The notes below the pieces were generated by a model that did no database searches, was not told the DNA's origin, and saw nothing but the letters and a program-made list of their open reading frames with translations. Below, in pieces: positions 2,150 to 61,262 of a stretch of 64,000 bases of DNA. Made by a program: the position numbers and the translations under genes. The DNA comes from Azolla caroliniana (Eukaryota > Plantae > Polypodiophyta), in the NCBI GenBank assembly GCA_043228905.1, contig JBHGNT010000001.1, forward strand, positions 11,284,001 through 11,348,000. Direction: 5' to 3'. Position 1 is the stretch's first letter, and each line of letters starts with the position of its first letter.

Positions 2150-2823
2150 TGTTGGGATTACGGTCCCTCCGGATGGGATGTCCGGAGACGAATGACGGCA
2201 AGCCCGGTTGCGGTTACGGAACCGGAGGATGAAGAGTACCCGGCATGAAGCCGGATGACGAGTACCCGGATGCGGATCCGGATGATGAAGAGTACCCGGC
2301 ATGAAGCCGGATGAAGAGTACCCGGATACGGATCCGGATGATGAAGACCCCGGTTACGGAGCCGGATGACGAATGTACCCGGAGAGAGATCCGGATGCGG
2401 GGACATATTTGTGAATATGTTTGCTAAGAGCCCTTGAGGCTATATTTGTAAATTGCCCGAAAGTCATATGTGTATAAATATGACTTAGGGCAAACAGTTT
2501 AAAAGTTTTGGTTGCTCATTCGTATGCGAAGTGAGAGCAGCCGAGAGAGAGAGAGAGACGAAGAGGTCGTTGCCTCTGTGTATTACCGCCGCCTGTGGCG
2601 AAGACAGTGAGCTCAAGGTTGTTGCCTTGTAGCTTCACCATTGTACACCTCTGTTTATAGTGATAGTTGGAGTTTGAGGACTCCCGTGGTTTTTCCCATT
2701 TAGGGTTTTCCACGTAAAACATCCTGTGTACCTTTCTCTCTGTTGTCTTCGTGCATATTGTATTTCCCGTTTTCTGTGAGTTGATCCTATTCCTCGGTTG
2801 TGGCCGAGCACTGTTTTTCAACA
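2150..2823 (+). repeat. 5' LTR of copia A
   Basis: Matches 6940-7617 except two G/A substitutions and (GA)8 versus (GA)10. CCGG-rich tandem repeats in U3; TATAAAT near 2473. Confidence 0.97.
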
Positions 2824-2854
2824 AATTGGTATCAGAGCGACGGTAACACAGAAA

Positions 2855-5374
2855 ATGGAAGGCGGCGGTAGTGGGCCTCCGGGCATGATGGTGTTGAACT
2901 CACAGAACTACGCCGATTGGAAGATAAAGATGGAAGACCTTCTCATCGTCCGAGACCTGTACGAACCGATCGACAATGCCGAGGTACCCAAGGGAGTAAT
3001 AGAGTCGGAGTGGAAGCTCCTGAACCGGAAAGCCGTAGCGACGATCCGGCAATATGTCGATGTAAGCGTTCTACAACATGTGGCGAACGACACCAACGCA
3101 TATGAGATGTGGAAGAAGCTGTCGGGCCTCTACGAGAGGAAGAATGCGTTGAACCGGACCTCCCTGATGAGGAAGATTGTGAACCTCAAGTACCGGGACG
3201 GCGAGAATATGGTGGAACACGTGAGCACGTTCATGGGATTCGTGAACCAGCTTGCGGCGATCAAGTTCCCGTTGGAGGATGCAATGCAAGCCATCATTCT
3301 GATGTGTACATTGCCGGAAAGCTGGGAGAACTTGGTGGTGACTCTCAGCACCTCCTGCACCGAAGATAACTTGTCTCTACAAACGGTAAAGTCAAGTATC
3401 TTGAACGAAGAAGCACGTCGGAGAGATAAAGAACCGGCCTCCGACTCGAAGGCGCTGCTTACCGAATCGGAACGGGGAAGACACTGGAACCGGAGTCCGC
3501 AAAGACGGGAGAAGTCGGGGACCCGGTCGCAGTCAAGAGGAAGACCCACCTGCTTCCACTGTGGGAAGCCGGGGCACTTCCGGAAGAATTGTCGGCATTA
3601 CCGAAAGGACAACGGTGCCGACGACACCGATTCGAAGAAGTCACCGGAGAGAAACGGTGCATACCGGGGAGCCACGGACCGGAGAGGTCCGGATCGGCGA
3701 GGGCAGGACCGGAAAGGAACGACAGCACTCGCAGCAAGTGAAGAAGAGATAATGCTCATTACCGAAGAGAGGGAGCTGAACCTTGCCGGTGAAGAGATGA
3801 CCTGGGTGGTCGATTCCGGAGCGTCGTTCCACCTGACCCCGGAGAAGAAATACTTCTCATCCTACACAGCCGGTGAGCACGGCTGTGTCCGGATGGGAAA
3901 TGAAGGTACGTGCCGGATAGCCGGCATAGGAGACGTGTGGCTGATGACATCAACCGGATGCAAGATGCTGCTGAAGGATGTGCGACACGTTCCGGAGGTT
4001 CGATTGAACCTGATTTCGGCCGGGAGGCTAGACGATGAAGGCTACACAGGTAGCATCCGGAATGGCGTAATGAAGTTCAGCAAGGGGAGCCTGATAGTGG
4101 CTCGGGCCCGGAAAGTCAACACACTGTACCTGATGAATGCCCGGTTATGTCCGGAAGAGCTGAATGTGGCAGCCGACACTGCCGGTGAGCTGTGGCACAA
4201 AAGACTGTGCCACATGAGTGAGAAGGGGATGAAGAGGCTTGCAGAAGACAACCTTATTCCAGTGAAGCATGTGCACCTGGAGAAGTGCACCGACTGTCTG
4301 GCCGGTAAGCAAAACTGGACCTCCTTCCACTCAAGGCCACCGACGAGACGTAGTGCACCATTAGAGTTGGTGCACACTGACGTGTGTCAAGTAGAAACGA
4401 AGTCACATGGCGGAGCCCAGTACTTCGTGACATTCATTGATGACCACAGCCGGAAGCTGTGGACGGCACCGTTGAAGACAAAGGACCAAGTATTGTCCGT
4501 CTTCAAAGAACTCAACGCGAGAGTGGAAAGAGAATCCGGCAAGAAGCTGAAAGCGATACGAGCGGATAACGGAGGGGAATACCGGGGACAGTTCACGGAG
4601 TACTGTCGCTCGAAAGGAATCCGGCTCGAGTTTACTGTGCCGAAGACGCCGGAACTGAATGGGCTGGCCGAGAGGATGAACCGGACCATAATGGAGAGGG
4701 TCCGGAGTATGCTGGCGCATGCGAAATTACCCAAGGGGTTTTGGGCTGAGGCAATGTCGACGGCGACATACGTGATAAACAGATCACCCTCAGTACCTTT
4801 GGACGGAGACACGCCGCAGAAAGTGTGGACCGGTAAGGAAGTGTCCTACCGGCATCTGAAGGTGTTCGGGTGTCTCGCATACGTGCATGTGGCAAAGGAC
4901 CGGAGAGGAAAGTTAGATCCAAAGACCCGGCCATGCATATTCCTCGGTTACGGCGACGATGAGTTCGGCTACCGAGTATGGGACCCGGTCGACAAGAAGA
5001 TATTCAGGAGTCGAGATATCGTCTTCATGGAGGACAAGACACTCGCCGACTGGGAGTCAGAGAAGAAGATGAAGAGCTCCAAGTCGACCGGTGAGGATCA
5101 ACTCTACGAGGAGCAGTCCCGACCGGCAAGGGACCGGTTAGCACTCGAGGATCCGGCCGAAGACGGTGAAGAAACAGAACCGGCCGAAGAAGATGAAAAT
5201 GAAACCGGAACCGGCCCCGATCCCGAAATGGATTCGGATGAAGAAGAATCGGAAGAACCGGTTACCGAAGCTCCGGAACGGAGATATCCTCTAAGAGAGA
5301 GAAGGGCCCCCCCGGAGATTTCCGGAACCAGAGCACGTGCTGCTAACCGACGAGGGGGAGCCGGAGAGCTTTGA
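2855..5374 (+). CDS. Copia A Gag-protease-integrase ORF
   Basis: ATG at 2855. CCHC knuckle CFHCGKPGHFRKNC, protease WVVDSGAS, integrase HHCC plus VHTD / RADNGGEY / NGLAER. The frame ends after a C7 run at 5307-5313. Confidence 0.92.
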   Translation: MEGGGSGPPGMMVLNSQNYADWKIKMEDLLIVRDLYEPIDNAEVPKGVIESEWKLLNRKAVATIRQYVDVSVLQHVANDTNAYEMWKKLSGLYERKNALNRTSLMRKIVNLKYRDGENMVEHVSTFMGFVNQLAAIKFPLEDAMQAIILMCTLPESWENLVVTLSTSCTEDNLSLQTVKSSILNEEARRRDKEPASDSKALLTESERGRHWNRSPQRREKSGTRSQSRGRPTCFHCGKPGHFRKNCRHYRKDNGADDTDSKKSPERNGAYRGATDRRGPDRRGQDRKGTTALAASEEEIMLITEERELNLAGEEMTWVVDSGASFHLTPEKKYFSSYTAGEHGCVRMGNEGTCRIAGIGDVWLMTSTGCKMLLKDVRHVPEVRLNLISAGRLDDEGYTGSIRNGVMKFSKGSLIVARARKVNTLYLMNARLCPEELNVAADTAGELWHKRLCHMSEKGMKRLAEDNLIPVKHVHLEKCTDCLAGKQNWTSFHSRPPTRRSAPLELVHTDVCQVETKSHGGAQYFVTFIDDHSRKLWTAPLKTKDQVLSVFKELNARVERESGKKLKAIRADNGGEYRGQFTEYCRSKGIRLEFTVPKTPELNGLAERMNRTIMERVRSMLAHAKLPKGFWAEAMSTATYVINRSPSVPLDGDTPQKVWTGKEVSYRHLKVFGCLAYVHVAKDRRGKLDPKTRPCIFLGYGDDEFGYRVWDPVDKKIFRSRDIVFMEDKTLADWESEKKMKSSKSTGEDQLYEEQSRPARDRLALEDPAEDGEETEPAEEDENETGTGPDPEMDSDEEESEEPVTEAPERRYPLRERRAPPEISGTRARAANRRGGAGEL

Positions 5375-6929
5375 AGAAGCAAAGCATGACACCCAGAGCC
5401 GCAGGTGGTTGAGTGCCATGCAGGACGAGATGGATTCCCTGCATGAGAACCACACATATGAACTTGTGGAGTTGCCGAAAGGAAAGCGGGCACTTCGAAA
5501 CAAGTGGGTGTTCAAGCTGAAGCCGGGAGATGCCGGAAACCCCCCGAGATACAAAGCCAGGATCGTGGTGAAGGGGTTTCAGCAGAAGAAGGGCGTCGAC
5601 TTCGACGAGATATTTGCCCCGGTAGTGAAGATGACCTCCATCCGGACGGTGCTGAGCATAGCGGCAAGCATGGACCTCGAGGTAGAACAGATGGACGTGA
5701 AGACGGCATTCCTTCACGGTGACCTCGAAGAAGAGATCTACATGCAGCAACCGGAAGGATTCGAGAAGAAAGGGAAGGAGCACCTGGTATGCCGGTTGAA
5801 GAAGAGCCTTTACGGACTGAAGCAGGCTCCCCGGCAATGGTACCGGAAGTTCGACTCTTTCATGACCGACGAAGGGTACCACAAAACGCAGTCCGATCAC
5901 TGCGTGTTTGTGAAGAAGTTCGAAGGAGGAGACTTTCTAATACTCCTCTTATACGTGGACGACATGTTGATCGTCGGACGGGACCAGGTCAAGATACGGA
6001 TGCTCAAGAAGGCTCTTCACCGAACCTTCTCAATGAAGGACCTGGGTCCGGCGAGGCAAATACTAGGGATGCACATCATCCGGGACCGGAAGAAGAAGCA
6101 ATTGTGGCTGTCACAGGAGAAGTACGTGACAAAGGTGCTTCACCGGTTCAACATGTCGGAAGCAAGACCGGTCGGGTCAACTCTCCCGGCAAACTGCAAG
6201 TTGTCCAGCAAGCAAAGCCCCAAGACAAAGGCTGAGAAGGAGGATATGATGAAAGTACCATATGCCTCTGCCGTCGGAAGCTTGATGTACGCAATGGTGT
6301 GTACAAGACCGGACATTGGATATGCAGTCGGAGTGGTGAGCCGGTACATGAGCAATCCCGGCAAAGAGCACTGGAACGCGGCCAAGTGGATACTCCGATA
6401 CCTGAAGGGCACGGCAAACGTGTGCCTCCGATTCGGCTCCGGTAAGCCCGAACTCGACGGCTTTACCGATTCGGATATGTCGGCTGATGCAGATACCAGC
6501 CGGTCCACATCAGGGTATGTGATGACGTATGCAGGGGGAGCTGTTTCGTGGCAGTCGAGGCTGCAGAAGACGGTTGCGTTGTCAACCACGGAGGCGGAGT
6601 ACATGGCGGCTGTTGAAGCCGGCAAGGAAATAATATGGATGAAGGACTTCATTAGAGAGCTCGGTATCCGGCAAAAGGAGTACCTACTCTACTGCGACAG
6701 TCAGAGTGCCATCCACCTTGCGAAGAACGCGGCCTATCACTCCCGGACGAAGCACATCCAGCGAAGATATCACTGGATCCGGGAAAGGATAGAAGACCAG
6801 GAGTTCGTGCTGACGAAGATCCACACGGACGAGAACGGGTCAGATATGCTGACCAAAGTGCTCACACCCGACAAGCTGGAAGCATGCCGGAAGAGGATCG
6901 GATTGGAGAGACATCCCATGCCGAAGTGA
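5337..6929 (+). CDS. Copia A reverse transcriptase-RNase H (frameshifted continuation of pol)
   Basis: Motifs YKARIV, QMDVKTAFLHG, SLYGLKQAPRQW, LLYVDDM and RNase H TDSD...STTEAEY...DMLTK. Confidence 0.92.
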   Translation: MLLTDEGEPESFEEAKHDTQSRRWLSAMQDEMDSLHENHTYELVELPKGKRALRNKWVFKLKPGDAGNPPRYKARIVVKGFQQKKGVDFDEIFAPVVKMTSIRTVLSIAASMDLEVEQMDVKTAFLHGDLEEEIYMQQPEGFEKKGKEHLVCRLKKSLYGLKQAPRQWYRKFDSFMTDEGYHKTQSDHCVFVKKFEGGDFLILLLYVDDMLIVGRDQVKIRMLKKALHRTFSMKDLGPARQILGMHIIRDRKKKQLWLSQEKYVTKVLHRFNMSEARPVGSTLPANCKLSSKQSPKTKAEKEDMMKVPYASAVGSLMYAMVCTRPDIGYAVGVVSRYMSNPGKEHWNAAKWILRYLKGTANVCLRFGSGKPELDGFTDSDMSADADTSRSTSGYVMTYAGGAVSWQSRLQKTVALSTTEAEYMAAVEAGKEIIWMKDFIRELGIRQKEYLLYCDSQSAIHLAKNAAYHSRTKHIQRRYHWIRERIEDQEFVLTKIHTDENGSDMLTKVLTPDKLEACRKRIGLERHPMPK

Positions 6930-6939
6930 AGGGGGAGTT

Positions 6940-7617
6940 TGTTGGGATTACGGTCCCTCCGGATGGGATGTCCGGAGACGAATGACGGCAAGCCCGGTTG
7001 CGGTTACGGAACCGGAGGATGAAGAGTACCCGGCATGAAGCCGGATGACGAGTACCCGGATGCGGATCCGGATGATGAAGAGTACCCGGCATGAAGCCGG
7101 ATGAAGAGTACCCGGATACGGATCCGGATGATGAAGACCCCGGTTACGGAGCCGAATGACGAATGTACCCGGAGAGAGATCCGGATGCGGGGACATATTT
7201 GTGAATATGTTTGCTAAGAGCCCTTGAGGCTATATTTGTAAATTGCCCGAAAGTCATATGTGTATAAATATGACTTAGGGCAAACAGTTTAAAAGTTTTG
7301 GTTGCTCATTCGTATGCGAAGTGAGAGCAGCCGAGAGAGAGAGAGAGAGAGACGAAGAGGTCGTTGCCTCTGTGTATTACCGCCGCCTGTGGCGAAGACA
7401 GTGAGCTCAAGGTTGTTGCCTTGTAGCTTCACCATTGTACACCTCTGTTTATAGTGATAGTTGAAGTTTGAGGACTCCCGTGGTTTTTCCCATTTAGGGT
7501 TTTCCACGTAAAACATCCTGTGTACCTTTCTCTCTGTTGTCTTCGTGCATATTGTATTTCCCGTTTTCTGTGAGTTGATCCTATTCCTCGGTTGTGGCCG
7601 AGCACTGTTTTTCAACA
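6940..7617 (+). repeat. 3' LTR of copia A
   Basis: Direct repeat of 2150-2823, preceded by the PPT and followed by the TSD. Confidence 0.97.
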
Positions 7618-9419
7618 AAGATGAGGCAGATAATATGTGATAAGGAAACATAGTTTGCCTCATTAAGCCTATCACTTGGGTGGCACCTATCATGGTAGTT
7701 CCCCTAGAATTTTACAAGATTAAAAAATGCACGGGATTTTGGAAGTTAAATGAGGCCACCATCTTCGATAATTACATAGTAAGCTTTAATAAATAGATTA
7801 TAATTTTACATGTATTATTTATTATAATTTTTTCATAGATGATACTGGTTATAAACGTAACATCATGAGATGTCGTGACCTCATAGAGGCTACTGCATGG
7901 TCACCAAATGGCATGCTTACATGAATGCATACTGGTGATCATGGACGTGAAGTGGCAAACGTGCATAGGTCTAGCTATTGTATATAAGCATGTGCTTTTT
8001 GTTGTTAATGAACCACTCCGGTTCAATGCCAATATTCTTTGGTGCATTTATATAATCTTGTTTAAAAAGGAGCATGTTATTCTTGTTAATATAATTACAT
8101 TTCTCTTATTTCTCTTTTATTTTCTTGTTCTCAATTTCCATTTATATTGTTCTTGACTAGTTCTTGAGAATATATGGGCTAAACACGATGTCATGTTACG
8201 AGTCACGACACATTGAATCCAAAGGTGCCATCTTTATGGATGAAGTTTAAGTCAATCTAATCCTTGAAATGCTCCATCCCAAGGTTGAGAAACAACATCG
8301 AGTATTCATGATATATGCTAGTTGTTGTAGGAGATTCATGAAAATCTTCACTGAAGAAACTCAATCCCTCTATGGGTTGTTAAAAGATGTTTTGGAATGA
8401 TGAGTGCATGACGCCTTTGACAATACAAAAGAGTGCTTAGCAAATGCACCTATACTTATGTCTCTTGATTGGGATCACAAATTTCATGTCTATATTGAAT
8501 CGTTATCATTGGCATGGTGCTAGCACAACTAAGGGATGACACGTTGAATTTCCCCATCACATCCACTAGCTACCAAATAAATCAAGTTGAACAAAATTAC
8601 TCAAAATCACGAGAACTATTAGCCATGATATATGGAATTAAAAATGTTCAAACATTACCTTATGGCTTGCCATTTCTCGCTCTCCATCAATCAAACGCAC
8701 GTTGTTCTTAAAATCAACAATATTAGTTATGTTGGGAGAATATCCCGTTGGATCGTCACACAACTCAAGTTTGACTTCAAGATCATTGTGCAAGATTGGA
8801 AAGATAACGTGTTCATAGACCATTTTGACAGACCAAAGATTGGAGAAGACCTTTTAGTATTGATAGAGAGGCTCAATATGTGATGCTTTTCATGATAGTC
8901 GCGATACTTGGGTGGGTACAACGCATAGTTAGCACATAGAAGCAGGCGATTCAAAATCGGCCCGAGGGTGACCGAATTATTTGGTAAGACGATGTTTCAT
9001 TTGTGTTGAAATTGTCGGAAGAAACTCGTGTGATCATTTCTAGAGGATAGATCGTACCTCCTACGAGTGGGAGAATGTGATAAGAAAAGGTAAATATGTT
9101 GGGCATTGAGACATTCTTTTCGTTCCAATCTATAGGGGCATAGTTATAATTTTGTGGAAAGAAGTGATCAAATTAAAGAGTTGGAATCAATATGAGATCT
9201 ATTAACTATGGAGAAACATAGTAAGAAAAGATCGGAGGTAAGACTATTGGCTCTGTAATCCTTCAAGTTAAGCAGAGGTAGCTATTTCCGAATGCAATGC
9301 CAAGGTATTCTTTCATTTGTGTGTGTGTGTGTGTGTGTTTTATCTGCAGCTAGCTTTTTGCATTCTTTGTAGTATTTTTATTCTGTATATATTGGATTGA
9401 TCAAATTAGAAGAAAATGT

Positions 9420-19786: not shown

Positions 19787-21940
19787 CTAATGCAAATCCT
19801 CCTTTGCTAGAAGAGCCATGATTCCGCCTCCATGGACTCTTCGTTCCAATGATGGGAAGGAAAACATTGACATATCATTTGAAGGTGGTGATATTAACAA
19901 TGACGTTTCATTTGAAACCATATTGTGAGTGCTGTAGCTTCTATTACTCTTCTGGAGGAGAGGTTTGTGCACCAGAGGTAAATTCACCTTCTTGTTGGAG
20001 AAAGTCTTTGGAAGAGTCATTTTCTGATGCATTTGAATGGGGTTCAGATCAATGCCATTCGATGGTGGTATAACAGAATCAACAGCATCAAGCTTGTATT
20101 CTACTTTCTCACTATCACATTGCATAGAACTGGAATGTGAGGCAGAAAATTGGAATTCACTACCTTTTGATGATGATTCAGACTTGGATGGTTGATCTGA
20201 CACTCCATGACCCGAAAAAGATGCTGGCGTAGGCATTATATTGCAATATGTAGGAGGGTTCATACAACCACTTCTCTCAATAAGCTGCTGCATAAAGATG
20301 CTATGAGAAGCACAAACTCCTGATGATTTACTTCTAGCAAATTGATCCAAAAGTGCATTTTCATCACTATGAGCTTCATACACTGAGCCTTCTCTACACC
20401 AAAAGCATCTTTTCCCACCACCATGAGCTTTACAGAAATCTGTACTTCCTTGTGCACTTTTGTCACAATTGTCAAATTTGCAACGCTTTCCACCTCCATG
20501 CTTCACACAACAATCAGTTCTTCCCCTTGCACTTTTTGTACAACCGGGGACTGAACACCTTTTACCACCACCATGAGCGACACAAAATAAAGTGCCACCA
20601 TGAACACTTTTCGTGCACGTATTGCCACCAAAAGTGCATCTTTTTCCGCCACCATGAGCTTTGCAAAGCGACGTGCTTCCTTCTGCACCTTTTGTACAAC
20701 CTTCAAAAATGCATCTCTTACCACCACCATGTCCTTTACAAAACAAAGTGCTTCCTTGTGCACCTTTACTACAATCTGGAAATTGACATCTCCTTCCTCC
20801 ACCATGAGATATGCAGAGCCCTGATATGCCTTCAGCACTTTTAATACACCCTTCCCTCTGACATCGCTTGCCACCACCATGTCGGATGCATTTGCCAGTC
20901 TTTCCTCTGGCAGCTTTTGTACAACCTTCGTATCCACATCTATGACCTCCACCATGAGCAATGCAAAAGTCTGTCCGTCCTTCAGCACTTTTAAGGCATC
21001 CTAAGCTCTGGCATCGAGGACCACCACCATGAGTCTTGCAAAAGTTTGTTCGGCTCTCAGCACCTTTTGTACAATTAGGCCTCTGGCATCGCCTTCCTCC
21101 ACCATGTGTAATACAAAGACCCGATGTGCCTCTTGCACCAGTTTCACACCCAGGAAACTTACATGTCTTCTTAGACCGAACACCAATGCCAGATGATGGA
21201 GACAGTTCACTACTAACAAACGAGCTACTAGAACAAGATTTTATAGTGTTTGGTTCATCAGCTTTTTTCACCAACCTTTCTTCAGTTTCAGCTAGTGAGA
21301 ATTTTCCGTTGGGTTGAATTGGCCAAAGACCAACATCATGCGAACTAACTACATCATGATTCCTTCGCTTCATCCTCTTTGCAGCACTTGTGGAGCCTTC
21401 ATCTAACATAGCATTTACTTTCTGAGGTGTATTATGGATATTAAAGTCATTATACCACATTCCTGTCACACTATCTGAATCATCTGAAAATGAATTCCCA
21501 GCCAATCTCAGCTGTGAATACACAACTTCATTCTCTACACTAGAAAATGACAGTCTCTGGTTCCTAGAATTTGTAAAGCTTTTCAATCTGGATTCATTGA
21601 GAAAATCGGATTGTCCAGAAGGAATCAAGTTCAAATTTGTTGAAGAACGAGAATCATAACCTCGGTGCTCTGATAAGCCATGATGTTTAAATCCAAGGCT
21701 TAGCTCTATCGGCATGCAATCTTCATTTCTATTCACTTCCCATGACATACTACTATAAGTAAGCTCACTATGGACACTTTCAGCTGTAGTGCTCAAACCT
21801 AGGACTAGCTGAAGATCATCTCTGTCGATAAGTTTGCCACCATTTCCATTTTGGCCATTATCCTTTGAGTGATCAAAAGGGGACATAGATTCATCAATAC
21901 TTTCCCTAGTTGCCCATTGATGGGGTAGTGTAGGCTTCAT
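19787..21940 (-). CDS. WRKY19-like zinc-finger repeat protein (C-x4-C...C-x2-HGGG repeats; no WRKY domain), single coding exon
   Basis: Ten repeats such as RCQFPDCSKGAQGSTLFCKGHGGG plus a degenerate 11th, and the family-typical C-terminal ERRVHGGGIMALL. First in-frame ATG at 21940. A probable 5' UTR intron runs from about 22053 to 23037 (CAG|GTAAGG donor on the minus strand). Confidence 0.9.
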   Translation of the reverse strand: MKPTLPHQWATRESIDESMSPFDHSKDNGQNGNGGKLIDRDDLQLVLGLSTTAESVHSELTYSSMSWEVNRNEDCMPIELSLGFKHHGLSEHRGYDSRSSTNLNLIPSGQSDFLNESRLKSFTNSRNQRLSFSSVENEVVYSQLRLAGNSFSDDSDSVTGMWYNDFNIHNTPQKVNAMLDEGSTSAAKRMKRRNHDVVSSHDVGLWPIQPNGKFSLAETEERLVKKADEPNTIKSCSSSSFVSSELSPSSGIGVRSKKTCKFPGCETGARGTSGLCITHGGGRRCQRPNCTKGAESRTNFCKTHGGGPRCQSLGCLKSAEGRTDFCIAHGGGHRCGYEGCTKAARGKTGKCIRHGGGKRCQREGCIKSAEGISGLCISHGGGRRCQFPDCSKGAQGSTLFCKGHGGGKRCIFEGCTKGAEGSTSLCKAHGGGKRCTFGGNTCTKSVHGGTLFCVAHGGGKRCSVPGCTKSARGRTDCCVKHGGGKRCKFDNCDKSAQGSTDFCKAHGGGKRCFWCREGSVYEAHSDENALLDQFARSKSSGVCASHSIFMQQLIERSGCMNPPTYCNIMPTPASFSGHGVSDQPSKSESSSKGSEFQFSASHSSSMQCDSEKVEYKLDAVDSVIPPSNGIDLNPIQMHQKMTLPKTFSNKKVNLPLVHKPLLQKSNRSYSTHNMVSNETSLLISPPSNDMSMFSFPSLERRVHGGGIMALLAKEDLH

Positions 21941-24900
21941 GATTAAAAGACAATAATACTTGGTAACAACAGGATCAATGAAGCTGATCAATTTGACTCG
22001 AGGGATATTCCAAACTTGGTTAAATATCCCTATTGATTAGAATATCAAACAGCCTACACCATTATGTTTATATATGATTCATCCCAATAATCAGTGTGTC
22101 GTCAAATTTCTGAGCATCGAATGAATGTGCCGAACCTTCTTTACCCGTGGCATGTTGTTCTTCCATTCAGCAGTGAAGAGTCAATAATCAACTTCCCAAA
22201 CAAAGAGTAAAGAAAGAGAACACGCCTTCAATACATGTGGAAAACTATATTTGTTTACAGCATTATAAAAACAATAGAGATAATAATCAGCATCCGAAAA
22301 GAGTAAAAACAATAGATAATTGTATTACATGTGGAAAACCATATTTTTACAAAATAAACAATATAACTACATGAACTGCAACAAAACAATTAGTACATAG
22401 TCTAATTACGTAATTGGCATCAAAACAAATGGTATGACATAGCTAACATTGACACAATAAGTTATACATTATATATTTACATAGTTGACATCAAAACAAA
22501 GCTTACTACATAGTCAACATCAAGGCAGTAAGTACAACATAATACATAATATAAGTACATAACCAGCATAAAAAAGGGTATTACATAATATAACTATATA
22601 GCCAGTATAAAAAGGAGTAGTATATACCAATAAGTGAAAGAAAAATAAAAGCAAAATTATGCTCAATCTTAGTGTCTGTTTATATGTATATGTATATGTG
22701 TTTGTATGTGTATATGTATGTGTTTGTATATGTATATGTATACGTATATGGATTGATGTTATTCTAGCAACATATAAACAGATACGACAACAAATAAATC
22801 AGAAAAAAAACGAGAGTAAAATAGAGGAAGGAATTTAGAATGACAAAATTCACGCGAAAGAAATTAACTTTTCTCTAGATAAATGAATGGAAATTCTGTG
22901 CTTTAAGAATGAAGATACATCCACAAGAGTACAAATATCGAATGGAAAACGATGCTGCGCAAGATAAACATACCCAAAATGTGAAGGAAAAGGAATTCAA
23001 AAGAAAAGATGCAGCAAAGGAGAAAACAAGAACCTTACCTGATATTATCCACGTTTTAAACAGCTCCAAGAGAAGGCAAAATCTATGGCTATCTCTGTTT
23101 TACACTCTTTTTCCTCTGAGTGCTCTGTTTCTGCACTCTGTGTGTACTTCGAAACCCTAGATCTGGAATCTTCAAAAGCCTCCAATGAAAGGGGTGGGGG
23201 TTTTTTTCATAAATACTTTACGATTTTATTTCATGATGATGAATCATGATATGTATATCATTTATGGCCTCCTCCTCCATTACTATGCTCTCTCTCTCTC
23301 TATCTCATATGTTAGAACCAACCAACTCTTAGCCAAAAGAAAGAAAAAAGGAATCAAGTTTCTCCATGATATTGGTTGGTTGATTGATTGATAGGAGAGC
23401 TTGATCACACATGAATTGAATTGAGCACATACACTACTACCTCTACCTATTTCTGCGCCCATTTCTTATGTGACGATAAGCTTGTTATTGTCCCTTGCCC
23501 CTGGGCATGTAATCTCGACACGTAATTTGTTTCTAATGTGTTGGTAATAGGTATCGATGTGTTGCCTGACTCATCTCAACTCCTCCCTTTTGCATTTTTG
23601 GATCAACGTGTTTGTATCACACCACCCACGTGATCGTCGTGATTTCGCTGCCGGCTCCTTACTTAGAACTAATGGGGTGTTTTTTAGGTATGCCGTTTTT
23701 TGCCTCTTATGTGCATTAATTTTGTCGTAAAACATTCTCTTATGCTTGTTTTGCTCTCCCTTCAATGCATGACTAGAAACGCTCACTCGTTACTATTCGA
23801 CAAACATTCCATGTACCATCTCGATTGTACAACTTTTTATATTATTGTTGTGTGCAATGAGATCGCAATTAAACAACATCACCCTTATGTTTGTTTTCGC
23901 ATACATGTTCTATTGTTTTGTGAATGCGACAAGATCCCCGAAAAATTGGTTTGCTATTGGTTTATTGCATTAGTTGTGATTCGTGAATGAATAAACATGT
24001 CACCATTTTATTTTGATTAAATGATACAAACCGACATGACTTTATGGAAATGTTTTTATGTTCTAAACATGCACATCATGAAACCAATTATTTATACAAA
24101 TAGTTATAGGTTTCATACTTCATAGTCTTGCATTTTGTCATGTTGTCTCATCATTCATGTAACCGATTGGCCCCTCTCAAAATGATTGATTACGTGCAAG
24201 AAGAGAATGGAAGACGATTATTTTGGTTTTTCAAGCCATCCCAACAACAGTTTGGACGTTGCGCTTAACTAGCCTGAATCATATGTCTATTACACATCAT
24301 GTCATATGCACATGTGAACTATGCATAATGTACCTGTTTGTGTGTTTGTGACACATGTCAATATCTAGGTACACTCTGATTAAATGGAATGACATTGTAT
24401 AAATCTAGAGGTCTTAATGGGTGTGCTTTCTTTGAGTATATCTACATTAAATTATTTATTAACATCTTTATTAAAAAGTGTGTTGTGATCAGATGTCATG
24501 GTTGCAATTAAATGATGCAAACCAACATAACTTGAGCAAATGTTTTTTTATGGCCAATGGATGATGGCATCATGAAACACGCTCAACTTTGAGGATGCTT
24601 TCAGGTTATTCAATGCACATTGTATATAAGTTATACATATACATACACATGTCACTCGTGGCAAATGATGTCAATGGTAAATGCCATGTTAGAAAAACTT
24701 AACCTTGTTAACTTAATCCCATTGATTTAGCAAATAATGCATAATTAATTAGTATGACAAAAAATGGAGCTATAAAATCATTACCTTATGTAGGTCCTCT
24801 GCTTAGGATTTCTGCTCAAGTAGATATTCATTTCATTACACAGAATAATTTTTGTTACACAAACAATGAGGTAGAAACTACTTCAAAAGTTGAGCCCATA

Positions 24901-51440: not shown

Positions 51441-51613
51441 ATTAAGAATGATGAACTACTTACTCTCCAATGTGAGTGTTGGCATGAAAGGCTGACTCCT
51501 TCCATTTTGTACCGTGGTGTGAACTCGTCCATATAGTTAGGGCTTAGCACATGCGCGATAACCTAACATTGTAAAGAGGGGGTTTTTTCGCTTGATCATT
51601 CGTGTACAGAGTC

Positions 51614-51666
<53 letters not shown>

Positions 51667-52253
51667 AGAAATAAAAGAGCTTCCATTACAGCTTCATTTG
51701 TGTATCTAACATCTGTCTATATCTTCTTGTGCTCCTTTTGTGTTGTTTGCTAAGCATAACAAATAGGTTCTCACATATGTTTCGGCATATTTGTCCATTA
51801 ACTGGTATCAGAGTAATCCGCAGCTCGGCGACAACAAATAGCAGAAAAAGCTGAAAGGAAAAATACCAAGTTAGCAAATCTCACTTTCAGAAGAATCATG
51901 GCATCTGTTGGGATTACGGTCCCTCTGGATGGGATGGTCAGATGTCCGGGAATCGGGAATGAAGACCCCGGCTACGGAGCCGGATGATGAAGACCCCGGC
52001 TACGGAGCCGGATGATGAAGACCCGGTTCCGGATCCGGATGATGAAGACCCCGGCTACGGAGCCGGATGACGAATGTACCCGGAGAGAGATCCGGATGCG
52101 GGGACATATTTGTGAATATGTTTGCCAAGGGCCCTTGAGGCTATATTTGTAAATAGCCCGAAAGTCATATGTGTATAAATATGACTTAGGGCAAACAGTT
52201 TTGTGGTTACTCATTTTTCTGGTTTTTTCACTTAGAGAGAGCTAAGTGAGCAG

Positions 52254-52308
<55 letters not shown>

Positions 52309-52603
52309 GAAGAGGTCGTTGCCTCTGTGTATTACCGCCGCCTGTGGCGAAGACAGTGAGCTCAAGGTTGTTGCCTTGTAGCTTCACCATTGTACATCTC
52401 TGTTTATAGTGATAGTTGGAGTTTGAGGACTCCCGTGGTTTTTTCCCATTTAGGGTTTTCCACGTGAAACATCCTGTGTACTCTTCTCTCTATTGTCTTT
52501 GTGCATTTTGTATTTCCTGTTTTCTGGGAGTTGATCCTATTCCTCGGTTGTGACCAAGCACTGTGTTCAACAAAGTGGTATCAGAGCGACGGTAACACAG
52601 AAA

Positions 52604-54883
52604 ATGGAAGGCGGCGGTAGTGGGCCTCCGGGCATGATGGTGTTGAACGCACAGAACTACGCCGACTGGAAGATAAAGATGGAAGACCTTCTCATCGTCC
52701 GAGACCTGTATGAACCGATCGACAATGCCGAGATACCCAAGGGGGTAATAGAGTCGGAGTGGAAGCTCCTGAACCGGAAAGCCGTAGTGACGATCCGGCA
52801 ATATGTCGATGTAAGTGTTCTGCAACATGTGGCGAACGATACGAACGCCTATGAGATGTGGCAGAAGCTGTCCGGACTGTATGAGAGGAAGAATGCTCTG
52901 ACCCGGACCTCCCTGATGAGGAAGATAGTGAATCTTAAGTACCGGGACGGCGAGAGCATGGTCGAACACGTCAGCACGTTCATGGGATTCGTGAACCAGC
53001 TTGCGGCGATCAAGTTCCCGTTGGATGACGCAATGCAAGCCATCATGCTGATGTGTACCCTTCCGGAGAGCTGGGAGAACTTGGTAGTTACTCTCAGCAC
53101 CTCCTGTAAGGAAGAGAACTTGTCTTTACTAACGGTAAAGACAAGTATTCTAAATGAAGAAGCGCGTCGGAGAGATAAAGAACCGGCCTCCGACTCGAAG
53201 GCGCTGCTTACCGAATCGGATTGGGGAAGACAACGGAACCGGAGTCCGCAAAGACGGGAGAAGTCGGGGACACGGTCGCAGTCGAGGGGAAGACCTACAT
53301 GCTTCTACTGTGGGAAGCTGGGACACTTCCAGAAGAACTATCGGCATTTCCGGAAAGACAACGGAACCAACGGTACCGATTCGAAGAAGTCACCGGAGCG
53401 AAACGGTGCATACCGGGGAGCCACGGACCGGAGAGGTCCGGATCGGCGAGGGCATGACCGGAAAGGAATGACGGCACTCGCGGCAAGTGAAGAAGAGATA
53501 ATGCTCATTACCGAAGAGAGGGAGCTGAACCTTGCCGGTGAAGAGATGACCTGGGTGGTCGATTCCGGAGCGTCATTCCACCTGACCCCGGAGAAGAAAT
53601 ACTTCTCATCCTACACAGCCGGTGAGCACGGCTGTGTTCGGATGGGAAATGAAGGTACATGCCGGATTGCCGGCATAGGAGACGTGTGGCTGATGACATC
53701 AACCGGATGCAAGATGCTGCTGAAGGATGTCCGACACGTTCCGGAGGTTCGATTGAACCTGATTTCGGCCGGGAGGCTAGACGATGAAGGCTACACGGGT
53801 AGCATCCGGAACGGCGTAATGAAGTTCAGTAAGGGGAGCCTGATAGTGGCTCGAGCCCGGAAAGTCAACACACTGTACCTTATGAATGCCTGGTTGTGTC
53901 CGGAGGAGTTGAACGTGGCAACCAACACTGCCGGTGAGCTGTGGCACAAGAGACTGTGCCACATGAGTGAGAAGGGGATGAAGAGGCTTGCAGAAGACAA
54001 CCTTATTCTAGTGAAGCATGTGCACCTGGAGAAGTGCACCGATTGCCTGGCCGGTAAGCAGAACCGAACCTCCTTCCACTCAAGGCCACCGACGAGACGT
54101 AGCGCACCATTGGAGTTGGTGCACACTGACGTGTGTCAAGTAGAAACGAAGTCACATGGCGGAGCCCAGTACTTCGTGACATTCATTGATGACCACAGCC
54201 GGAAGCTGTGGACGGCACCGTTGAAGACAAAGGACCAAGTGTTGTGCATCTTCAAAGAACTCCACGTGAGAGTGGAAAGGGAATCCGGCAAGAAGCTGAA
54301 AGCGATACGAGCGGATAACGGAGGGGAATACCGGGGGCAGTTCGAGGAGTACTGTCGCTCGAAGGGAATCCGGCTCGAGTTTACTGTGCCGACGACGCCG
54401 GAACTGAACGGGCTGGCCGAGAGGATGAACCGGACCATAATGGAGAGGGTCTGGAGTATGCTGGCGCATGCGAAATTACCCAAGGGGTTTTGGGCTGAGG
54501 CAATGTCAACGGCGACATACGTGATAAACAGATCACCCTCAGTACCTTTGGACGGAGACACGCCGCAGAGAGTGTGGACCGGTAGGGAAGTATCCTACCG
54601 GCATCTGAAGGTGTTCGGGTGTCTCGCATATGTGCATGTGGCAAAGGACCGGAGAGGAAAGCTAGATCCAAAGACCCGGCCATGCATATTCCTCGGTTAC
54701 GGCGATGACGAGTTCGGCTACCGAGTATGGGACCCGGTCATGCATATGGGAGCCGGTTACCGAAGCTCCGGAACGGAGATATCCTCTAAGAGAGAGAAGG
54801 GCCCCCCGGAGATTTCCGGAACCAGAGCACGTGCTGCTAACCGACGAGGGGGAGCCGGAGAGTTTCGAAGAAGCGAAGCTTGA
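52604..54883 (+). CDS. Copia B Gag-PR-INT ORF (truncated by an internal deletion)
   Basis: Near-identical to the A protein up to RVWDPV; the knuckle's last Cys is mutated to Tyr. Confidence 0.88.
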   Translation: MEGGGSGPPGMMVLNAQNYADWKIKMEDLLIVRDLYEPIDNAEIPKGVIESEWKLLNRKAVVTIRQYVDVSVLQHVANDTNAYEMWQKLSGLYERKNALTRTSLMRKIVNLKYRDGESMVEHVSTFMGFVNQLAAIKFPLDDAMQAIMLMCTLPESWENLVVTLSTSCKEENLSLLTVKTSILNEEARRRDKEPASDSKALLTESDWGRQRNRSPQRREKSGTRSQSRGRPTCFYCGKLGHFQKNYRHFRKDNGTNGTDSKKSPERNGAYRGATDRRGPDRRGHDRKGMTALAASEEEIMLITEERELNLAGEEMTWVVDSGASFHLTPEKKYFSSYTAGEHGCVRMGNEGTCRIAGIGDVWLMTSTGCKMLLKDVRHVPEVRLNLISAGRLDDEGYTGSIRNGVMKFSKGSLIVARARKVNTLYLMNAWLCPEELNVATNTAGELWHKRLCHMSEKGMKRLAEDNLILVKHVHLEKCTDCLAGKQNRTSFHSRPPTRRSAPLELVHTDVCQVETKSHGGAQYFVTFIDDHSRKLWTAPLKTKDQVLCIFKELHVRVERESGKKLKAIRADNGGEYRGQFEEYCRSKGIRLEFTVPTTPELNGLAERMNRTIMERVWSMLAHAKLPKGFWAEAMSTATYVINRSPSVPLDGDTPQRVWTGREVSYRHLKVFGCLAYVHVAKDRRGKLDPKTRPCIFLGYGDDEFGYRVWDPVMHMGAGYRSSGTEISSKREKGPPEISGTRARAANRRGGAGEFRRSEA

Positions 54884-56423
54884 CACCCATAGCCGCAGGT
54901 GGTTAAGTGCCATGCAGGAGGAGATGGATTCCCTGCATGAGAACCACACATATGAACTTGTGGAGTTGCCGAAAGGAAAGCGGGCACTTCGAAACAAGTG
55001 GGTGTTCAAGCTGAAACCGGGAGATGCCGGAAACCCCCCGAGATACAAAGCCAGGATCGTGGTGAAGGGGTTCCAGCAGAAGAAGGGCGTCGACTTCAAC
55101 GAGATATTTGCCCCGGTAGTGAAGATGACCTCCATCCGGACGGTGCTGAGCATAGCGGCAAGCATGGACCTCGAGGTAGAACAGATGGACGTGAAGACGG
55201 CATTCCTTCACTGTGACCTCGAAGAAGAGATCTACATGCAGCAACCGGAAGGATTCGAGAAGAAAGGGAAGGAGCACCTGGTATGCCGGTTGAAGAAGAG
55301 CCTTTACGGACTGAAGCAGGCTCCCCGGCAATGGTACCGGAAGTTCGACTCTTTCATGACCGACGAAGGGTACCACAAAACGCAGTCCGATCACTGCGTG
55401 TTTGTGAAGAAGTTCGAAGGAGGAGACTTTCTAATACTCCTCCTGTACGTGGACGACAAGTTGATCGTCGGACGGGACCAGGTCAAGATACGGATGCTGA
55501 AGAAAGCGCTTCACCGAACCTTCTCAATGAAGGACCTGGGTCCGGCGAGGCAAATACTAGGGATGCACATCATCCGGGACCGGAAGAAGAAGCAGTTGTG
55601 GCTGTCACAGGAGAAGTATGTGACAAAGGTGCTTCACCGGTTCAACATGTCGGAAGCAAGACCGGTCGGGTCAACCCTCCCGGCAAACTGCAAGTTGTCC
55701 AGCAAGCAAAGCCCCAAGACAAAGGCTGAGAAGGAGGACATGATGAAAGTACCATATGCCTCTACCGTCAGAAGCTTGATGTACGCAATGGTGTGTACAA
55801 GACCGGACATAGGATATGCAGTCGGAGTGGTGAGCCGGTACATGAGCAATCCCGGCAAAGAGCACTGGAACGCGGCCAAGTGGATACTCCGATACCTGAA
55901 GGGCACGACAAACGTGTGCCTCCGATTCGGCTCCGGTAAGCCCGAACTCGACGGCTTTACCGATTCGGATATGTCGGCTGATGCAGATACCAGCCGGTCC
56001 ACATTAGGGTATGTGATGACGTATGCAGGGGGAGCTGTTTCGTGGCAGTTGAGGCTGCAGAAGACGGTTGTGTTGTCAACCACGGAGGTGGAGTACATGG
56101 CGGCTGTTGAAGCCGGCAAGGAAATAATATGGATGAAGGACTTCATTAGAGAGCTCGGTATCTGGCAGGAGGAGTACCGACTCTACTGCGACAGTCAGAG
56201 TGCCATCCACCTTGCGAAGAACGCGGCCTATCACTCCCGGACGAAGCACATCCAGCGAAGATATCACTGGATCTGGGAAAGGATAGAAAACCAGGAGTTC
56301 GTGCTGACGAAGATCCACACGGACGAGAACGGGTCAGATATGCTGACCAAAGTGCTCACACCCGACAAGCTGGAAGCGTGCCGGAAGAGGGTCGGACTGG
56401 AAAGACATCCCATGCCGAAGTGA
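54753..56423 (+). CDS. Copia B RT-RNase H (separated from INT by a frameshift)
   Basis: Same motifs as A, with substitutions such as YVDDK and FLHC. Confidence 0.85.
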   Translation, partial: PVTEAPERRYPLRERRAPRRFPEPEHVLLTDEGEPESFEEAKLDTHSRRWLSAMQEEMDSLHENHTYELVELPKGKRALRNKWVFKLKPGDAGNPPRYKARIVVKGFQQKKGVDFNEIFAPVVKMTSIRTVLSIAASMDLEVEQMDVKTAFLHCDLEEEIYMQQPEGFEKKGKEHLVCRLKKSLYGLKQAPRQWYRKFDSFMTDEGYHKTQSDHCVFVKKFEGGDFLILLLYVDDKLIVGRDQVKIRMLKKALHRTFSMKDLGPARQILGMHIIRDRKKKQLWLSQEKYVTKVLHRFNMSEARPVGSTLPANCKLSSKQSPKTKAEKEDMMKVPYASTVRSLMYAMVCTRPDIGYAVGVVSRYMSNPGKEHWNAAKWILRYLKGTTNVCLRFGSGKPELDGFTDSDMSADADTSRSTLGYVMTYAGGAVSWQLRLQKTVVLSTTEVEYMAAVEAGKEIIWMKDFIRELGIWQEEYRLYCDSQSAIHLAKNAAYHSRTKHIQRRYHWIWERIENQEFVLTKIHTDENGSDMLTKVLTPDKLEACRKRVGLERHPMPK

Positions 56424-56809
56424 AGGGGGAGTTTGTTGGGATTACGGTCCCTCCGGATGGGATGGTCAGATGTCCGGGAATCGGGAATGAAGACCCCGGC
56501 TACGGAGCCGGATGATGAAGACCCCGGCTACGGAGCCGGATGATGAAGACCCGGTTCCGGATCCGGATGATGAAGACCCCGGCTACGGAGCCGGATGATG
56601 AAGACCCCGGCTACGGAGCCGGATGACGAATGTACCCGGAGAGAGATCCGGATGCGGGGACATATTTGTGAATATGTTTGCCAAGGGCCCTTGAGGCTAT
56701 ATTTGTAAATAGCCCGAAAGTCATATGTGTATAAATATGACTTAGGGCAAACAGTTTTGTGGTTACTCATTTTTCTGGTTTTTTCACTTAGAGAGAGCTA
56801 AGTGAGCAG

Positions 56810-56844
<35 letters not shown>

Positions 56845-57064
56845 GAAGAGGTCGTTGCCTCTGTGTATTACCGCCGCCTGTGGCGAAGACAGTGAGCTCA
56901 AGGTTGTTGCCTTGTAGCTTCACCATTGTACATCTCTGTTTATAGTGATAGTTGGAGTTTGAGGACTCCCGTGGTTTTTTCCCATTTAGGGTTTTCCACG
57001 TGAAACATCCTGTGTACTCTTCTCTCTATTGTCTTTGTGCATTTTGTATTTCCTGTTTTCTGGG

Positions 57065-57089
57065 TTTAGGGTTTAGGGTTTAGGGTTTA
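57065..57089 (+). repeat. Interstitial telomeric repeat (TTTAGGG)3TTTA
   Basis: Perfect Arabidopsis-type repeats directly after the LTR ...TCTGGG. Confidence 0.95.
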
Positions 57090-60000
57090 ACCGACGCCAA
57101 CATCACAGTCTAACTAGGCAACAGGCAGGAGTGCAAAATCGCAGGGACCGGAGAAGTTCCTATCTGATTGCCCGATGGCAACATGATCACCCTGCTCCGA
57201 GTTCGGCACATACTTAATCTGAAAAGGAGTTTGGTCTCCATCGGCATGCTAGCCGAACACGGGTACAAAACGACTCTAGGTGAGTCAATATGGATGATCA
57301 GTCGAGGAAACCTAAAGATAGGAGGCGGGCACAAGTACAATAACTTGTACCCAATGATGGAGATCAATCCAAAATGGGTCGTGAACGTAGCCGGAAAGAC
57401 CAACCCAAACCTATGGCATGGTAGATTTGGCCATATGTCTCAAGCCAAACTTGATCGACCGATGGCGGTCGGCTACATCTCGAAACTCCAAGCAAAGAAG
57501 GACTTCTGCGAGCATGTCGATACGAGAAATAGACTCGAAGTCTGCACGTTCTTCAGTACGAGATGGTTCGACAACCCCTAGAGCTCGTGCACAGAGATAT
57601 ATGTGGGCCCATGCTAGAGCGATCACTAGGAGGCTCTCGGTACTTAGGTCCAAAGATGAAGTGCTCGAGGTCTTCACTCAGTGGATATCTGAAGTGGAGA
57701 ATCGATCGGGATACAGAGTGAAGATACTCAGATCTGACAACGAAGGAGAATATACCTCCAGAGCCTTCAAGAAGTACCTTTTCATCAAAGGGATCCAACA
57801 TCAAAAGACCGCTCCCTACACACCCATGCAGAATGGAGTGGCAGAATGGATCAACCGAACGATCCATGAGAGAGTGACGGCAATACTCCAACAAGTTGGA
57901 CTGAAGCTGGAGTTCTGGGCTGAGGCATTGCAGACAACAATATACTTGGTAAATCTATCACCGACGAAGGAAATCAGGCTCAAAGGGCCACAGGCACTAT
58001 CGTCAGGCAAACAACCGACCTACATTAGGCTCCGTGCATTTGGATGTGAAGCCTACGTGTTCATCCCCAGGGAGAAAAGGACCAAGTTGGCACCCCATGC
58101 GACGAAATGCATATTTCTTGGTTATGGAACCGATGGGGACTTTGGCTACCGGCTATGGGACCCTGAGAACCGGAAACTGATCCGGAGCAGTGACGTAGTC
58201 TTCAATGAAGGCTCTATCTTCTCTCAATAGAACCAACAAAAAATAGTTGGTAAAAAGGTATCCTTCAAAGATGACAACGACGTCATAGAAGGACCGACCC
58301 ATCGGGCTGACTTAGAGATTCGACAAACAGTCGAACTCGACCAAGCTGACAACATACCTATTGACTTCGAATTGGTAGGAAGTCCACTAGTCGAATTCGA
58401 AGACAAAGCCATCAAAGACAGAGCCGATTCGACAAGAGTCGAAGAAGGCAAAGTCAACAAGATGCTAGTAGGAAACAAAACCAAGTCGATAAAGTCCATA
58501 GGGGAGGACAACGTGACACCACCGAAATCCCAACTTGGGGGTGGGTCACCTAACAAGACTCCTAACACAAATGGTTCAACAAATACCGATCGCCCAACAG
58601 AGCTGATCAAAAAATCCGAACCACTTATCTTCGCACCCAGGAGATCTGGACGAGCTCGAAGACCAACAAAGTTTTTTCAATCAGGCCTCGACTATGTTAA
58701 CTACACCGATGCAAACAAACCAAGCAGTTATGAAGAAGCTATGGCTGCAACGGATGCCGATACATGGCTAAAATCCATGAAATCCGAAATGGACTCTATT
58801 CACAAGAATGAGACATGGGAGCAAGTCGAACTACCAATAGGAAGAAAGACGCTACCTTGCAAATGGGTTTTCCGATACAAATATGTATCTGACTCAGAGA
58901 AACCCAAGTACAAACCTCGGCTTGTCAAGAAAGGGTTGAAACAAGAACATGGGGTTGACTACGACGAGATATTCTCACCACTAGTCAAGATGACGACCCT
59001 CCAACTCTTACTAGGAGTCGTGGCGATAGAAGAACTAGTGTTAGAGCACCTAGATGTAAAGAAGGCATTCCTACACGGAGATATGGAAGAAGACATCTAC
59101 ATGTCTCAACTAGCAGGCTTCATGGCGACGCGGGCATAAAGTCACCTCGTATGTCGACTAAAGAAAAGCCTCTATGGCTTGAAAGAAGCGCTGAGGATGT
59201 GGTACCAAAAATTTGAATCCTACATCAGGCAACTTGGATACAGCCGATCCGAGTTCGAATCATGCATGTATATTTGGCAACTGGCCGACCAGTCTAGGAT
59301 TTATTTGATTCTATATGTCAACGACATGTTGATTGCAAGAAGCAATCAAGAAGAGATCGGAAAGTTGAAGTGGAGCCTTCACGACAAGTTCGCGATGAAG
59401 GAACTCGGACAAGTCCGTCACATACTGGGCATGAGGATCGAGCGAAATTGTACGACCAAGACTCTTCGACTCTCCCAGTTCGACTATTTCTGGAAGGTGT
59501 TGAGGTGCTTCAACATGCAGAATGTGAAGCCAACACCAACACCGCTTCCAACATTGATCCGACTATCGGACAGACACTCTCTTCAACTGACAAGAAGAGA
59601 GAGCTTAATGGAAAGATGTCATACGTATTAGCCGTAGGGAGTATCATGTACGCAATGGTGGCGACCTGACCTGACCTAGCCTATGTCGTAGGGGTGTTCA
59701 GTCGGTACATGTCAAATCTAGGACGAAAGCATTGGGAGGCCGTCAAGCACATCTTCAGGTACCTGAGAGGGACCGAAGATACACAACTGACTTTCAGTTT
59801 GACAACCTCATCCGAAGGCGAAGGCTACACTGACTCCGACTAAGCCAGAAATACGGACAATCAGAAGTCAACATCGAGCTATATTTTGACCTATGGTGGC
59901 GGTGTGATATCATGGAGGTTGAAGCTTCAGGAATGCGTGGCATTGTCAACCATAGAGGCCGAGTACATAGCAACATCGGAGGCAGCGAAGGAAGCGATTT

Positions 60001-61262
60001 GGCTACACCGACCGTGTGCTACCTTCTCAACTACAAGCCAAATCGACCAACCAGCGCCGACCATCTATTGCGACTCACAGAGCGCAATTCACCTCATTAA
60101 CAATCCCGTCTATCATGGAAAGATGAATCGCATTGAGGTACGATATCATCACATCCCGGAGCTCATGACTTAGAAGAGGCTCAAAGTTCGGAAGATCGAC
60201 ACTGAGGTGAACATCGTCGATTGCGTGACCAAGCCACTCCCAGATCAATGCTTCAGAGCACTAAGGACAAAGATGGGACTACGACAAGCGACCGAGCAGA
60301 AGAAAGCCAAACGAGGAGCAGAAGCTAAGAGTCAATCGAATCAATCATGATAATGAGCCATGCCAGGCTCGACACGGACCTCACCTTTGCCGACTTGACT
60401 ATATGCTGATCAACTTATAACATAACTTCATATTAGTGTTGTAATCTAGGTTTACCGGGGAGACAACCCCAAACACATGTACATGTATGAAAGAGTAGTC
60501 CTTTTACGGGTGAGTTTGTTGGCATAAAAGGTTGACTCCTTCCACTTTGTACCCTAGTGTGAACTCGCCCATATAGTTAGGGCTTAGTATATAAGCGATA
60601 ACCTAACGTTGTAAAGAGGGGGATTTTTTGCTTGATTATTCTTGTACAGAGTCTCTGAGAGAGAGGAGAGAGAAAGAGAGAGAACAGAAATAAAGAATGC
60701 TTCCATTAAAACTTCATCTGTTTATCTAACATCTGTCTATATCTTCTTGCCCTCCTTTTGTGTTCTTTCCTGAGCATAACTGACAAGTCCTCACATACAT
60801 TTCTGTGCCTATCGGTCCATTAGTGAGCACACGAAATGCAACGAGACTTCGGTCGCGAAAACCAGTTGTTGTTCGAGATACAGAGCGAAAAGAAGTACTC
60901 CCTTCAACTTTCGTAGATATGCTTTGTCTCCATGTTGACCATCAAATATAAAAACATTGCCGATTCAATGGAGCAAAGATACAAATTAGCAAGTACTAGA
61001 AGCAACTTACCCTAGTGGTAAATCATTACACTACAAGCATTATGCCTTGGGTTCGAGACCCAGCTGTTCCTTATTTTCCCTAGGGTTTTCTACTTTGGTC
61101 TTCTTCACCCTATTTCTCTTTAGGGTTTTGTTGGGGTCTTCTTCCTCATCGTCGTATGGATTGAGTCTTTACATCAGTCAAGGGTTTAGTTCGGTAAAGA
61201 GCTCATATGTCCTAGGGGGTTTCGCTTCTGCTCTGTCTCCTATGCAATACCTTGGTCGGCGT

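Follow-up and report, generated by a model that had tools for sequence, protein, structure and literature searches.

A short tract of plant telomere repeat in Azolla caroliniana is the filler of a deletion junction between two nested copia retrotransposons, a young element (B) and the older host element (E) that contains it. We regard an origin of this tract as repair filler as highly probable, and the reading that we favor for its synthesis, at a probability of about 0.6, is that telomerase extended a broken end finishing in GGG and that end joining then sealed the far end. The locus lies in the window, the 64,000-nt stretch analyzed here (G000:C1:11284001-11348000, from an assembly of 523 Mb). 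Its perfect telomere-repeat run comprises 28 nt including the GGG (57062-57089, detected with TRF) and is situated 11.3 Mb into the 37.3-Mb contig C1; arrays of this repeat are found where contigs begin. An earlier sequence-only reading had proposed that telomerase acted on an internal break that was subsequently re-ligated. The deletion junction in this proposal is borne out, but the attribution to telomerase is less firm, given that overlaps are equal at both ends and no filler derived from telomerase RNA was found. Likewise, the anatomy that it described was right, but it overlooked a TTTAGGGTTT motif that this LTR carries 70 bp upstream of the break. The tract itself is likely a functionless scar, with no evident function.

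Both B and E display the hallmarks of copia elements, namely LTRs, a PBS, a PPT, and the order protease-integrase-RT (Table 1). Within B, the internal region matches the Pfam families Retrotran_gag_2, Pol_BBD, gag_pre-integrs, rve, SH3_retrovirus, and RVT_2. The element entered E at 51906, eight bases into the gag frame of the host and immediately after GCATC. Its two LTRs are identical at 602/603 aligned bases up to TTTTCTGGG at 57064, and the pair also differs by a 28-bp tandem-unit indel and a 20-bp difference in (GA)n length. At a plant substitution rate of 1.3e-8 per site per year, which may not fit this lineage, B would be ~0.06 Myr old (95% range 0.002-0.36) compared with ~5 Myr for E; because the rate of the lineage may differ, only the order of ages, with B younger than E, is firm. 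The single mismatch nevertheless agrees with the earlier view of the event as recent. The LTR termini of E read TG...TA rather than TG...CA, and its GTGAG duplication is clean. The window additionally contains a second, complete member of the B family, element A (2150-7618), whose LTRs differ at 2/675 bases, are flanked by the 5-bp TSD AAGAT, and carry GTG at the position where B has GGG. On the minus strand, 19787-22036 hold a host frame in which a WRKY19-type zinc-finger repeat of 75 bp occurs nine times.

Table 1. Features of the nested copia locus, in window coordinates.
Feature	Position	Strand	Remark
Left TSD of E (GTGAG)	51472..51476	+	Identical 5-mer at 60823-60827
5' LTR of old host copia E	51477..51800	+	38 mismatches in 303 aligned bases against 3' LTR
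Start of E gag (ATG + GCATC)	51898..51905	+	E relatives run on here without B
GCATC, left target-site copy of B	51901-51905	+	Right partner absent
Complete 5' LTR of young copia B, 667 bp	51906..52572	+	GGG at 52526-52528, as at the junction
B internal region: PBS, gag-protease-integrase and RT frames, PPT	52573..56433	+	Pfam domains
3' LTR of B, 44 bp short	56434..57064	+	From LTR-LTR alignment
TTTAGGGTTT motif in B 3' LTR, family-wide	56985..56994	+	Possible local template, situated 70 bp upstream
GGG common to LTR and tract	57062..57064	+	3-nt in-register overlap, private to B
Telomeric filler (TTTAGGG)3TTTA	57065..57089	+	Last 1-4 nt may belong to E; exact in X1 contig
Rest of E pol: C-terminal part of protease, integrase, RT, RNase H; several stops	57090..60516	+	
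3' LTR of E, then right TSD GTGAG (60823-60827)	60517..60822	+	

The junction was resolved by comparison with paralogous copies, which serve here as empty sites in place of orthologous alleles. As the sequence-only reading had described, the 3' LTR of B tracks the 5' LTR to 57064 and then passes directly into the telomeric tract, with exactly 44 bp missing after the GGG. On the far side, the sequence from 57090 onward corresponds to Pol_BBD positions 27-81 of 81 (E 2.6e-10); the start of the protease domain was therefore lost in addition to the gag region, whose near-complete absence had been noted correctly. In 6/6 E relatives measured, the distance from the B insertion site to the position matching 57090 is 1006-1018 bp, and the total loss consequently amounts to ~1,060 bp (1,055-1,067) when an inferred second GCATC is counted. 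The left GCATC indeed stands without its partner, as had been pointed out, and the former existence of that partner is deduced rather than seen.

The bases bordering the tract were examined in the same relatives. At the position of the junctional GGG, 28 other B-family LTRs have GTG (26/28) or GCG (2/28) and never GGG (0/28), while GGG occurs in both LTRs of B. The GGG is thus host sequence that predates the event and lies in register with the tract, in agreement with the original observation. At the right edge, E relatives read TTCA in 21/29 copies and TTTA in 5/29, so that the last A or the whole TTTA may be E's own and the added part measures 21-25 nt. Microhomology accordingly amounts to 3 nt on the left and 1-4 nt on the right. 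The tract was found in 0/28 B LTRs and 0/29 E copies, nor is it present in B's own 5' LTR, which rules it out as a family feature of either element and answers a question raised by the sequence-only reading. The possibility that it pre-existed in the lost part of E was also rejected, as no telomere-like 6- or 7-mer occurs there in 6/6 relatives. The left-junction 26-mer has only one other genomic match, at an unrelated place (L226) with a different flank. The chance of a perfect 21-mer of this kind in the window is ~3e-7. Across the 523 Mb, (TTTAGGG)3 occurs 19,476 times, mostly in terminal arrays, against a single occurrence of a reversed control pattern.

The same signature was found at many other junctions in a genome survey of the kind that had been suggested. 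Two edge-defined patterns gave 70 and 217 genome matches, and the set examined comprised most internal matches of the first pattern together with the second-pattern matches listed up to C14. These 289 sequences, totaling 1.69 Mb, contained 130 tracts of 20 nt or more, of which 123 were independent and 102 of these clean-edged, the latter mostly 22-29 nt in size; 32 tracts had a tract-free homologue on at least one flank. Left out before counting were 8 telomere-rich loci, 7 duplicated tracts, any tract less than 220 bp from the edge of its locus, a further 21 tracts whose context is degenerate and telomere-like, and 70 clean tracts that had no usable homologue. Overlaps of at least 2 nt between tract and empty site were found at the G-strand 5' end in 19/25 cases (p 8e-11) and at the 3' end in 14/25, and overlaps of at least 3 nt in 11/25 at each end, compared with chance levels of 16% and 5%, respectively, in a simulation that permits chance matches on both sides of the cut. 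The result holds with the B/E locus left out (at least 2 nt in 18/24 and 14/24); these counts draw on empty copies of which many are just 80-90% identical, and they retain a satellite-array case (L208) whose empty site is ambiguous. For 14 tracts, both flanks are covered by a single empty copy, and the net change ranges from a 4-nt duplication (L252, flanks 98-99% identical) to a 451-nt loss, the losses being 3-43 nt (34 nt at L172), 221 nt, and 451 nt, with one satellite case ambiguous. Taken with the overlaps, these changes relative to the empty copies indicate that the tracts mark repaired junctions rather than slow microsatellite growth. Contig C1 holds 24 internal tracts (20 independent) and, counted at 24 nt or more, 20 (16 independent) in 37.3 Mb; estimated from this density, the whole genome probably carries several hundred. 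Because the class is common in the genome and its kind is known from mammals, the single B/E locus is less surprising than it appeared in isolation.

Several individual loci illustrate the range of contexts. In a near-identical B-family copy (L172:5040, G000:C6:14734245; flanks 97-99% identical), a 30-nt tract replaces ~34 bp of gag on the antisense strand. A 34-nt tract in the 3' part of the 5' LTR of a related copia family (L125/L097, G000:C1:19062927) is accompanied by almost no host loss, and a tract of ~50 nt that includes one TTTAGGGG unit interrupts the integrase region of a gypsy element, where TTATA is apparently duplicated (L130/L100, G000:C1:23047643). On the minus strand at L185:5018 (G000:C10:13029655), a tract among local copies that are 97-99% identical sits at an apparent tandem-duplication junction with 4-nt overlaps at both ends. 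Amplified tracts were also observed: a satellite array near a contig start (G000:C16:135830-193565; L208, L209) carries a 25-nt tract in about ten amplified units, and four identical 621-bp tract-bearing segments in both orientations occur within 120 kb (G000:C1:9541373-9658099; L087-L090), reflecting either recent segmental amplification or assembly duplication. Four separate short tracts in the same orientation are located within 3 kb at L198 (G000:C15:18451600-18461599). Finally, independent tracts at L165 and L173 share one site in a gypsy-like family, with ends no more than 1 base apart, and may mark a recurrent junction.

The favored course of events would begin with the insertion of B into E, followed by a double-strand break near the 3' end of B and by resection. 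The exposed 3' GGG could then pair with the template of the telomerase RNA at its C run and be extended by about three repeats, too few to seed a stable telomere. The new 3' end would anneal to the protease region of E through 1-4 nt (A or TTTA), whereupon fill-in and ligation, likely by Pol theta-type end joining, would complete a repaired allele that was subsequently inherited. The genome carries long TTTAGGG arrays at the starts of contigs C2, C6, C7, C8, C11, and C14, and a TERT RNA-binding domain (PF12009; the single domain checked) scores above the Pfam cut-off at G000:C3:6343811-6344510, the nearest named relative of this fragment being a fern protein with 70% identity over half of the query. 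The G run is the starting point of 28/41 tracts selected by their 3' end (p 9e-4 against 3/7) but the finishing point of only 25/55 selected by their 5' end (p 0.40); the difference is supported by a Fisher p of 0.04, a modest test on pattern-selected sets. This polarity fits a G-ending primer that pairs with the C run of the template. Overlap lengths do not differ between 5' and 3' ends (Mann-Whitney p 0.82), a symmetry also predicted by Pol theta templating or capture. No preferred stopping phase was detected at 3' ends (chi-square p 0.69), where a template boundary might produce one. A comparison of flank words among the 123 tracts found no shared non-telomeric filler of the telomerase-RNA type, and the available text of PMC8287931 did not yield the telomerase template sequence for this plant lineage.

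The main rival to telomerase is a telomerase-independent route in which Pol theta copies or captures telomeric single-stranded DNA, or reverse-transcribes telomeric RNA, in trans during microhomology-mediated repair; a G-overhang, a t-circle, or a fragment could be the source. Equal overlaps at both ends and the lack of a stopping-phase bias are what this route would leave, Arabidopsis Pol theta fillers can derive from other molecules (PMC10923293, in the text available), and in human tumors 79% of telomere insertions show microhomology, such insertions being commoner in ALT-type than in TERT-type tumors according to the portion accessible of 10.1101/157560. However, the G-run bias is confined to the G-strand 5' end, while copying from a G-strand or telomeric-RNA template would be expected to prime from the other side, and we consider this route unlikely. 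A local source was also weighed, in which the GGG end slipped repeatedly onto TTTAGGGTTT and three to four rounds of Pol theta synthesis built the tract. The motif (10 nt) belongs to B's own LTR, its background rate within 100 bp is just 0.8%, and the majority of Pol theta fillers whose source can be identified come from close to the break (PMC10923293, same text). Nevertheless, it is absent within 100 bp of 100/102 clean tracts and within 150 bp of 96/102; being near only two at the shorter distance, one of them the B/E locus, and six at the longer (background 1.1%), it cannot explain the class. Its presence here is moreover expected, as it occurs in all four family LTRs in the window (2699, 7493, 52449, and 56985). 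Several error-free switches that spared the flanking LTR bases would be needed, and no single stretch of flank matches the whole filler, leaving local templating improbable.

It is also conceivable that insertion and deletion were one event: the 5' end of B cDNA would have integrated normally, while its 3' end, trimmed by 44 bp and telomere-extended, was joined to resected E. The small loss from B and the missing right TSD agree with such one-sided integration, which would leave the same structure as a later deletion. However, the tract of L172 is internal to a B-family copy, and the other resolved tracts do not lie at element ends as a rule, so that later breaks suffice and one-sided integration appears very improbable. 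Finally, a chimeric assembly or a polishing error could have joined unrelated pieces through a telomeric word. Of 20 public runs listed, X1-X4 and X14 were examined and those with small shares set aside, with at least 31 letters on each side as the standard for a contig bridging a join, and no public contig extends that far into the LTR side. An X1 contig of 102 letters nonetheless reproduces 57060-57160 with 0 differences at a depth of 8.1, including the whole tract, 71 bases of E, and only CTGGG (5 letters) of the LTR side. As it spans the tract into E with 30 letters on the short side, one fewer than that standard, the tract-to-E join is supported, while the LTR-to-tract join is weakly supported outside the assembly; the check on reads across the junction that the sequence-only reading had in mind thus holds for one side, as far as these contigs reach. 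Both sides of the junction, moreover, belong to one E element with matching LTRs and the TSD GTGAG, and the class recurs elsewhere with biological signatures, which makes an artifact barely credible. A second X1 contig ends at 57060 and differs in the sequence leading up to that point; it could be assigned to no genomic position. X2, X3, and X4 contain E-specific pieces with 0-2 differences; neither the filled nor the unfilled form of the site is crossed by a contig from these runs or from X14, and no orthologous undeleted or empty allele was recovered from the five runs, whose contig gaps are uninformative. At 57161, the last letter of the X1 contig is unaligned, and most public contigs have C where the window has T, a mismatch indicating that X1 may be another individual or that the base is private to the assembly.

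Earlier work by Nergadze et al. reportedly described short ITS at sites of double-strand-break repair. The human genome measures ~3.1 Gb, and relative to 229 human loci in a genome of that size the density of C1 tracts of at least 24 nt is about six- to sevenfold higher, a ratio that takes genome size from general knowledge and sets together counts made under different criteria. The available text of Santagostino et al. (2020; PMC7215372), from which the 229 human short ITS loci are taken, reports s-ITS inserted where double-strand breaks were repaired in primates, rodents, and equids; in the horse, in-register bases are present at 31/40 loci, deletion is the commonest change, and telomerase-RNA-derived inserts are rare (1/66). 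Like these mammalian loci, the Azolla tracts are short and perfect, have empty counterparts at homologous sites, show 1-5 in-register nt at the 5' end of the G strand, and come with deletions or short duplications at the site, and the anatomy of the B/E tract is that of a short ITS at a repaired break. In contrast to the mammalian loci, the repeat is the plant heptamer, the empty sites are paralogous retrotransposon copies rather than orthologues, the 1.06-kb loss at the B/E locus exceeds the short deletions described, and no insert derived from telomerase RNA was found.

Related processes resemble the Azolla tracts in part. Neotelomere formation likewise relies on priming by a few template-pairing bases, and the accessible part of a preprint on this process in humans states that a short extension made by telomerase would likely become an interstitial insertion through end joining (10.1101/2022.10.31.514589); break healing in wheat and Luzula is reviewed in PMC9498494. 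At the B/E locus, however, the chromosome continues and a new telomere was not formed. Plant fillers made by Pol theta (TEBICHI) share the combination of deletion and insertion, microhomology at both ends, and a size of tens of bases (PMC10923293), whereas the tracts described here are pure telomere repeat and mostly lack a local template; a search of the main text of that article gave 0 matches for telomeres. Plant telo boxes (AAACCCTA) are proposed to have spread through telomerase activity at free 3' ends and subsequent repair (PMC3022908), but they comprise about one unit, are concentrated in 5' gene regions, and are discussed in the text available under a model that makes no empty-site comparisons. 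Interstitial telomere repeats in plants are mostly interpreted as relics of fusion or amplification, with break repair as a possibility (PMC8621592), and an origin through break repair or telomerase is offered as a proposal in the accessible portions of PMC8621592, PMC3022908, PMC9498494, and PMC6410037. In a literature search covering mainly openly accessible articles, we found no plant study that set sites filled by short TTTAGGG tracts against their empty counterparts. The short ITS described here are of a kind known from mammals, for which we found no sequence-level report in plants.

Owing to the empty sites supplied by high-copy retrotransposons, insertion at a junction can be demonstrated base by base in a single genome and dated by LTR divergence. 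We tentatively suggest, as a reading short of even odds, that telomerase routinely takes part in ordinary double-strand-break repair in this plant. It would extend broken ends finishing in G by a few repeats before the ends are rejoined, and the retrotransposons would bear several hundred datable scars of such events, a density several times that in humans. Within this frequent class, the B/E locus is a recent case with a clean resolution and is of little consequence alone. With such loci, telomerase action at internal breaks in the plant germ line becomes testable, and deletion with telomeric filler adds one route to the erosion of retrotransposons.
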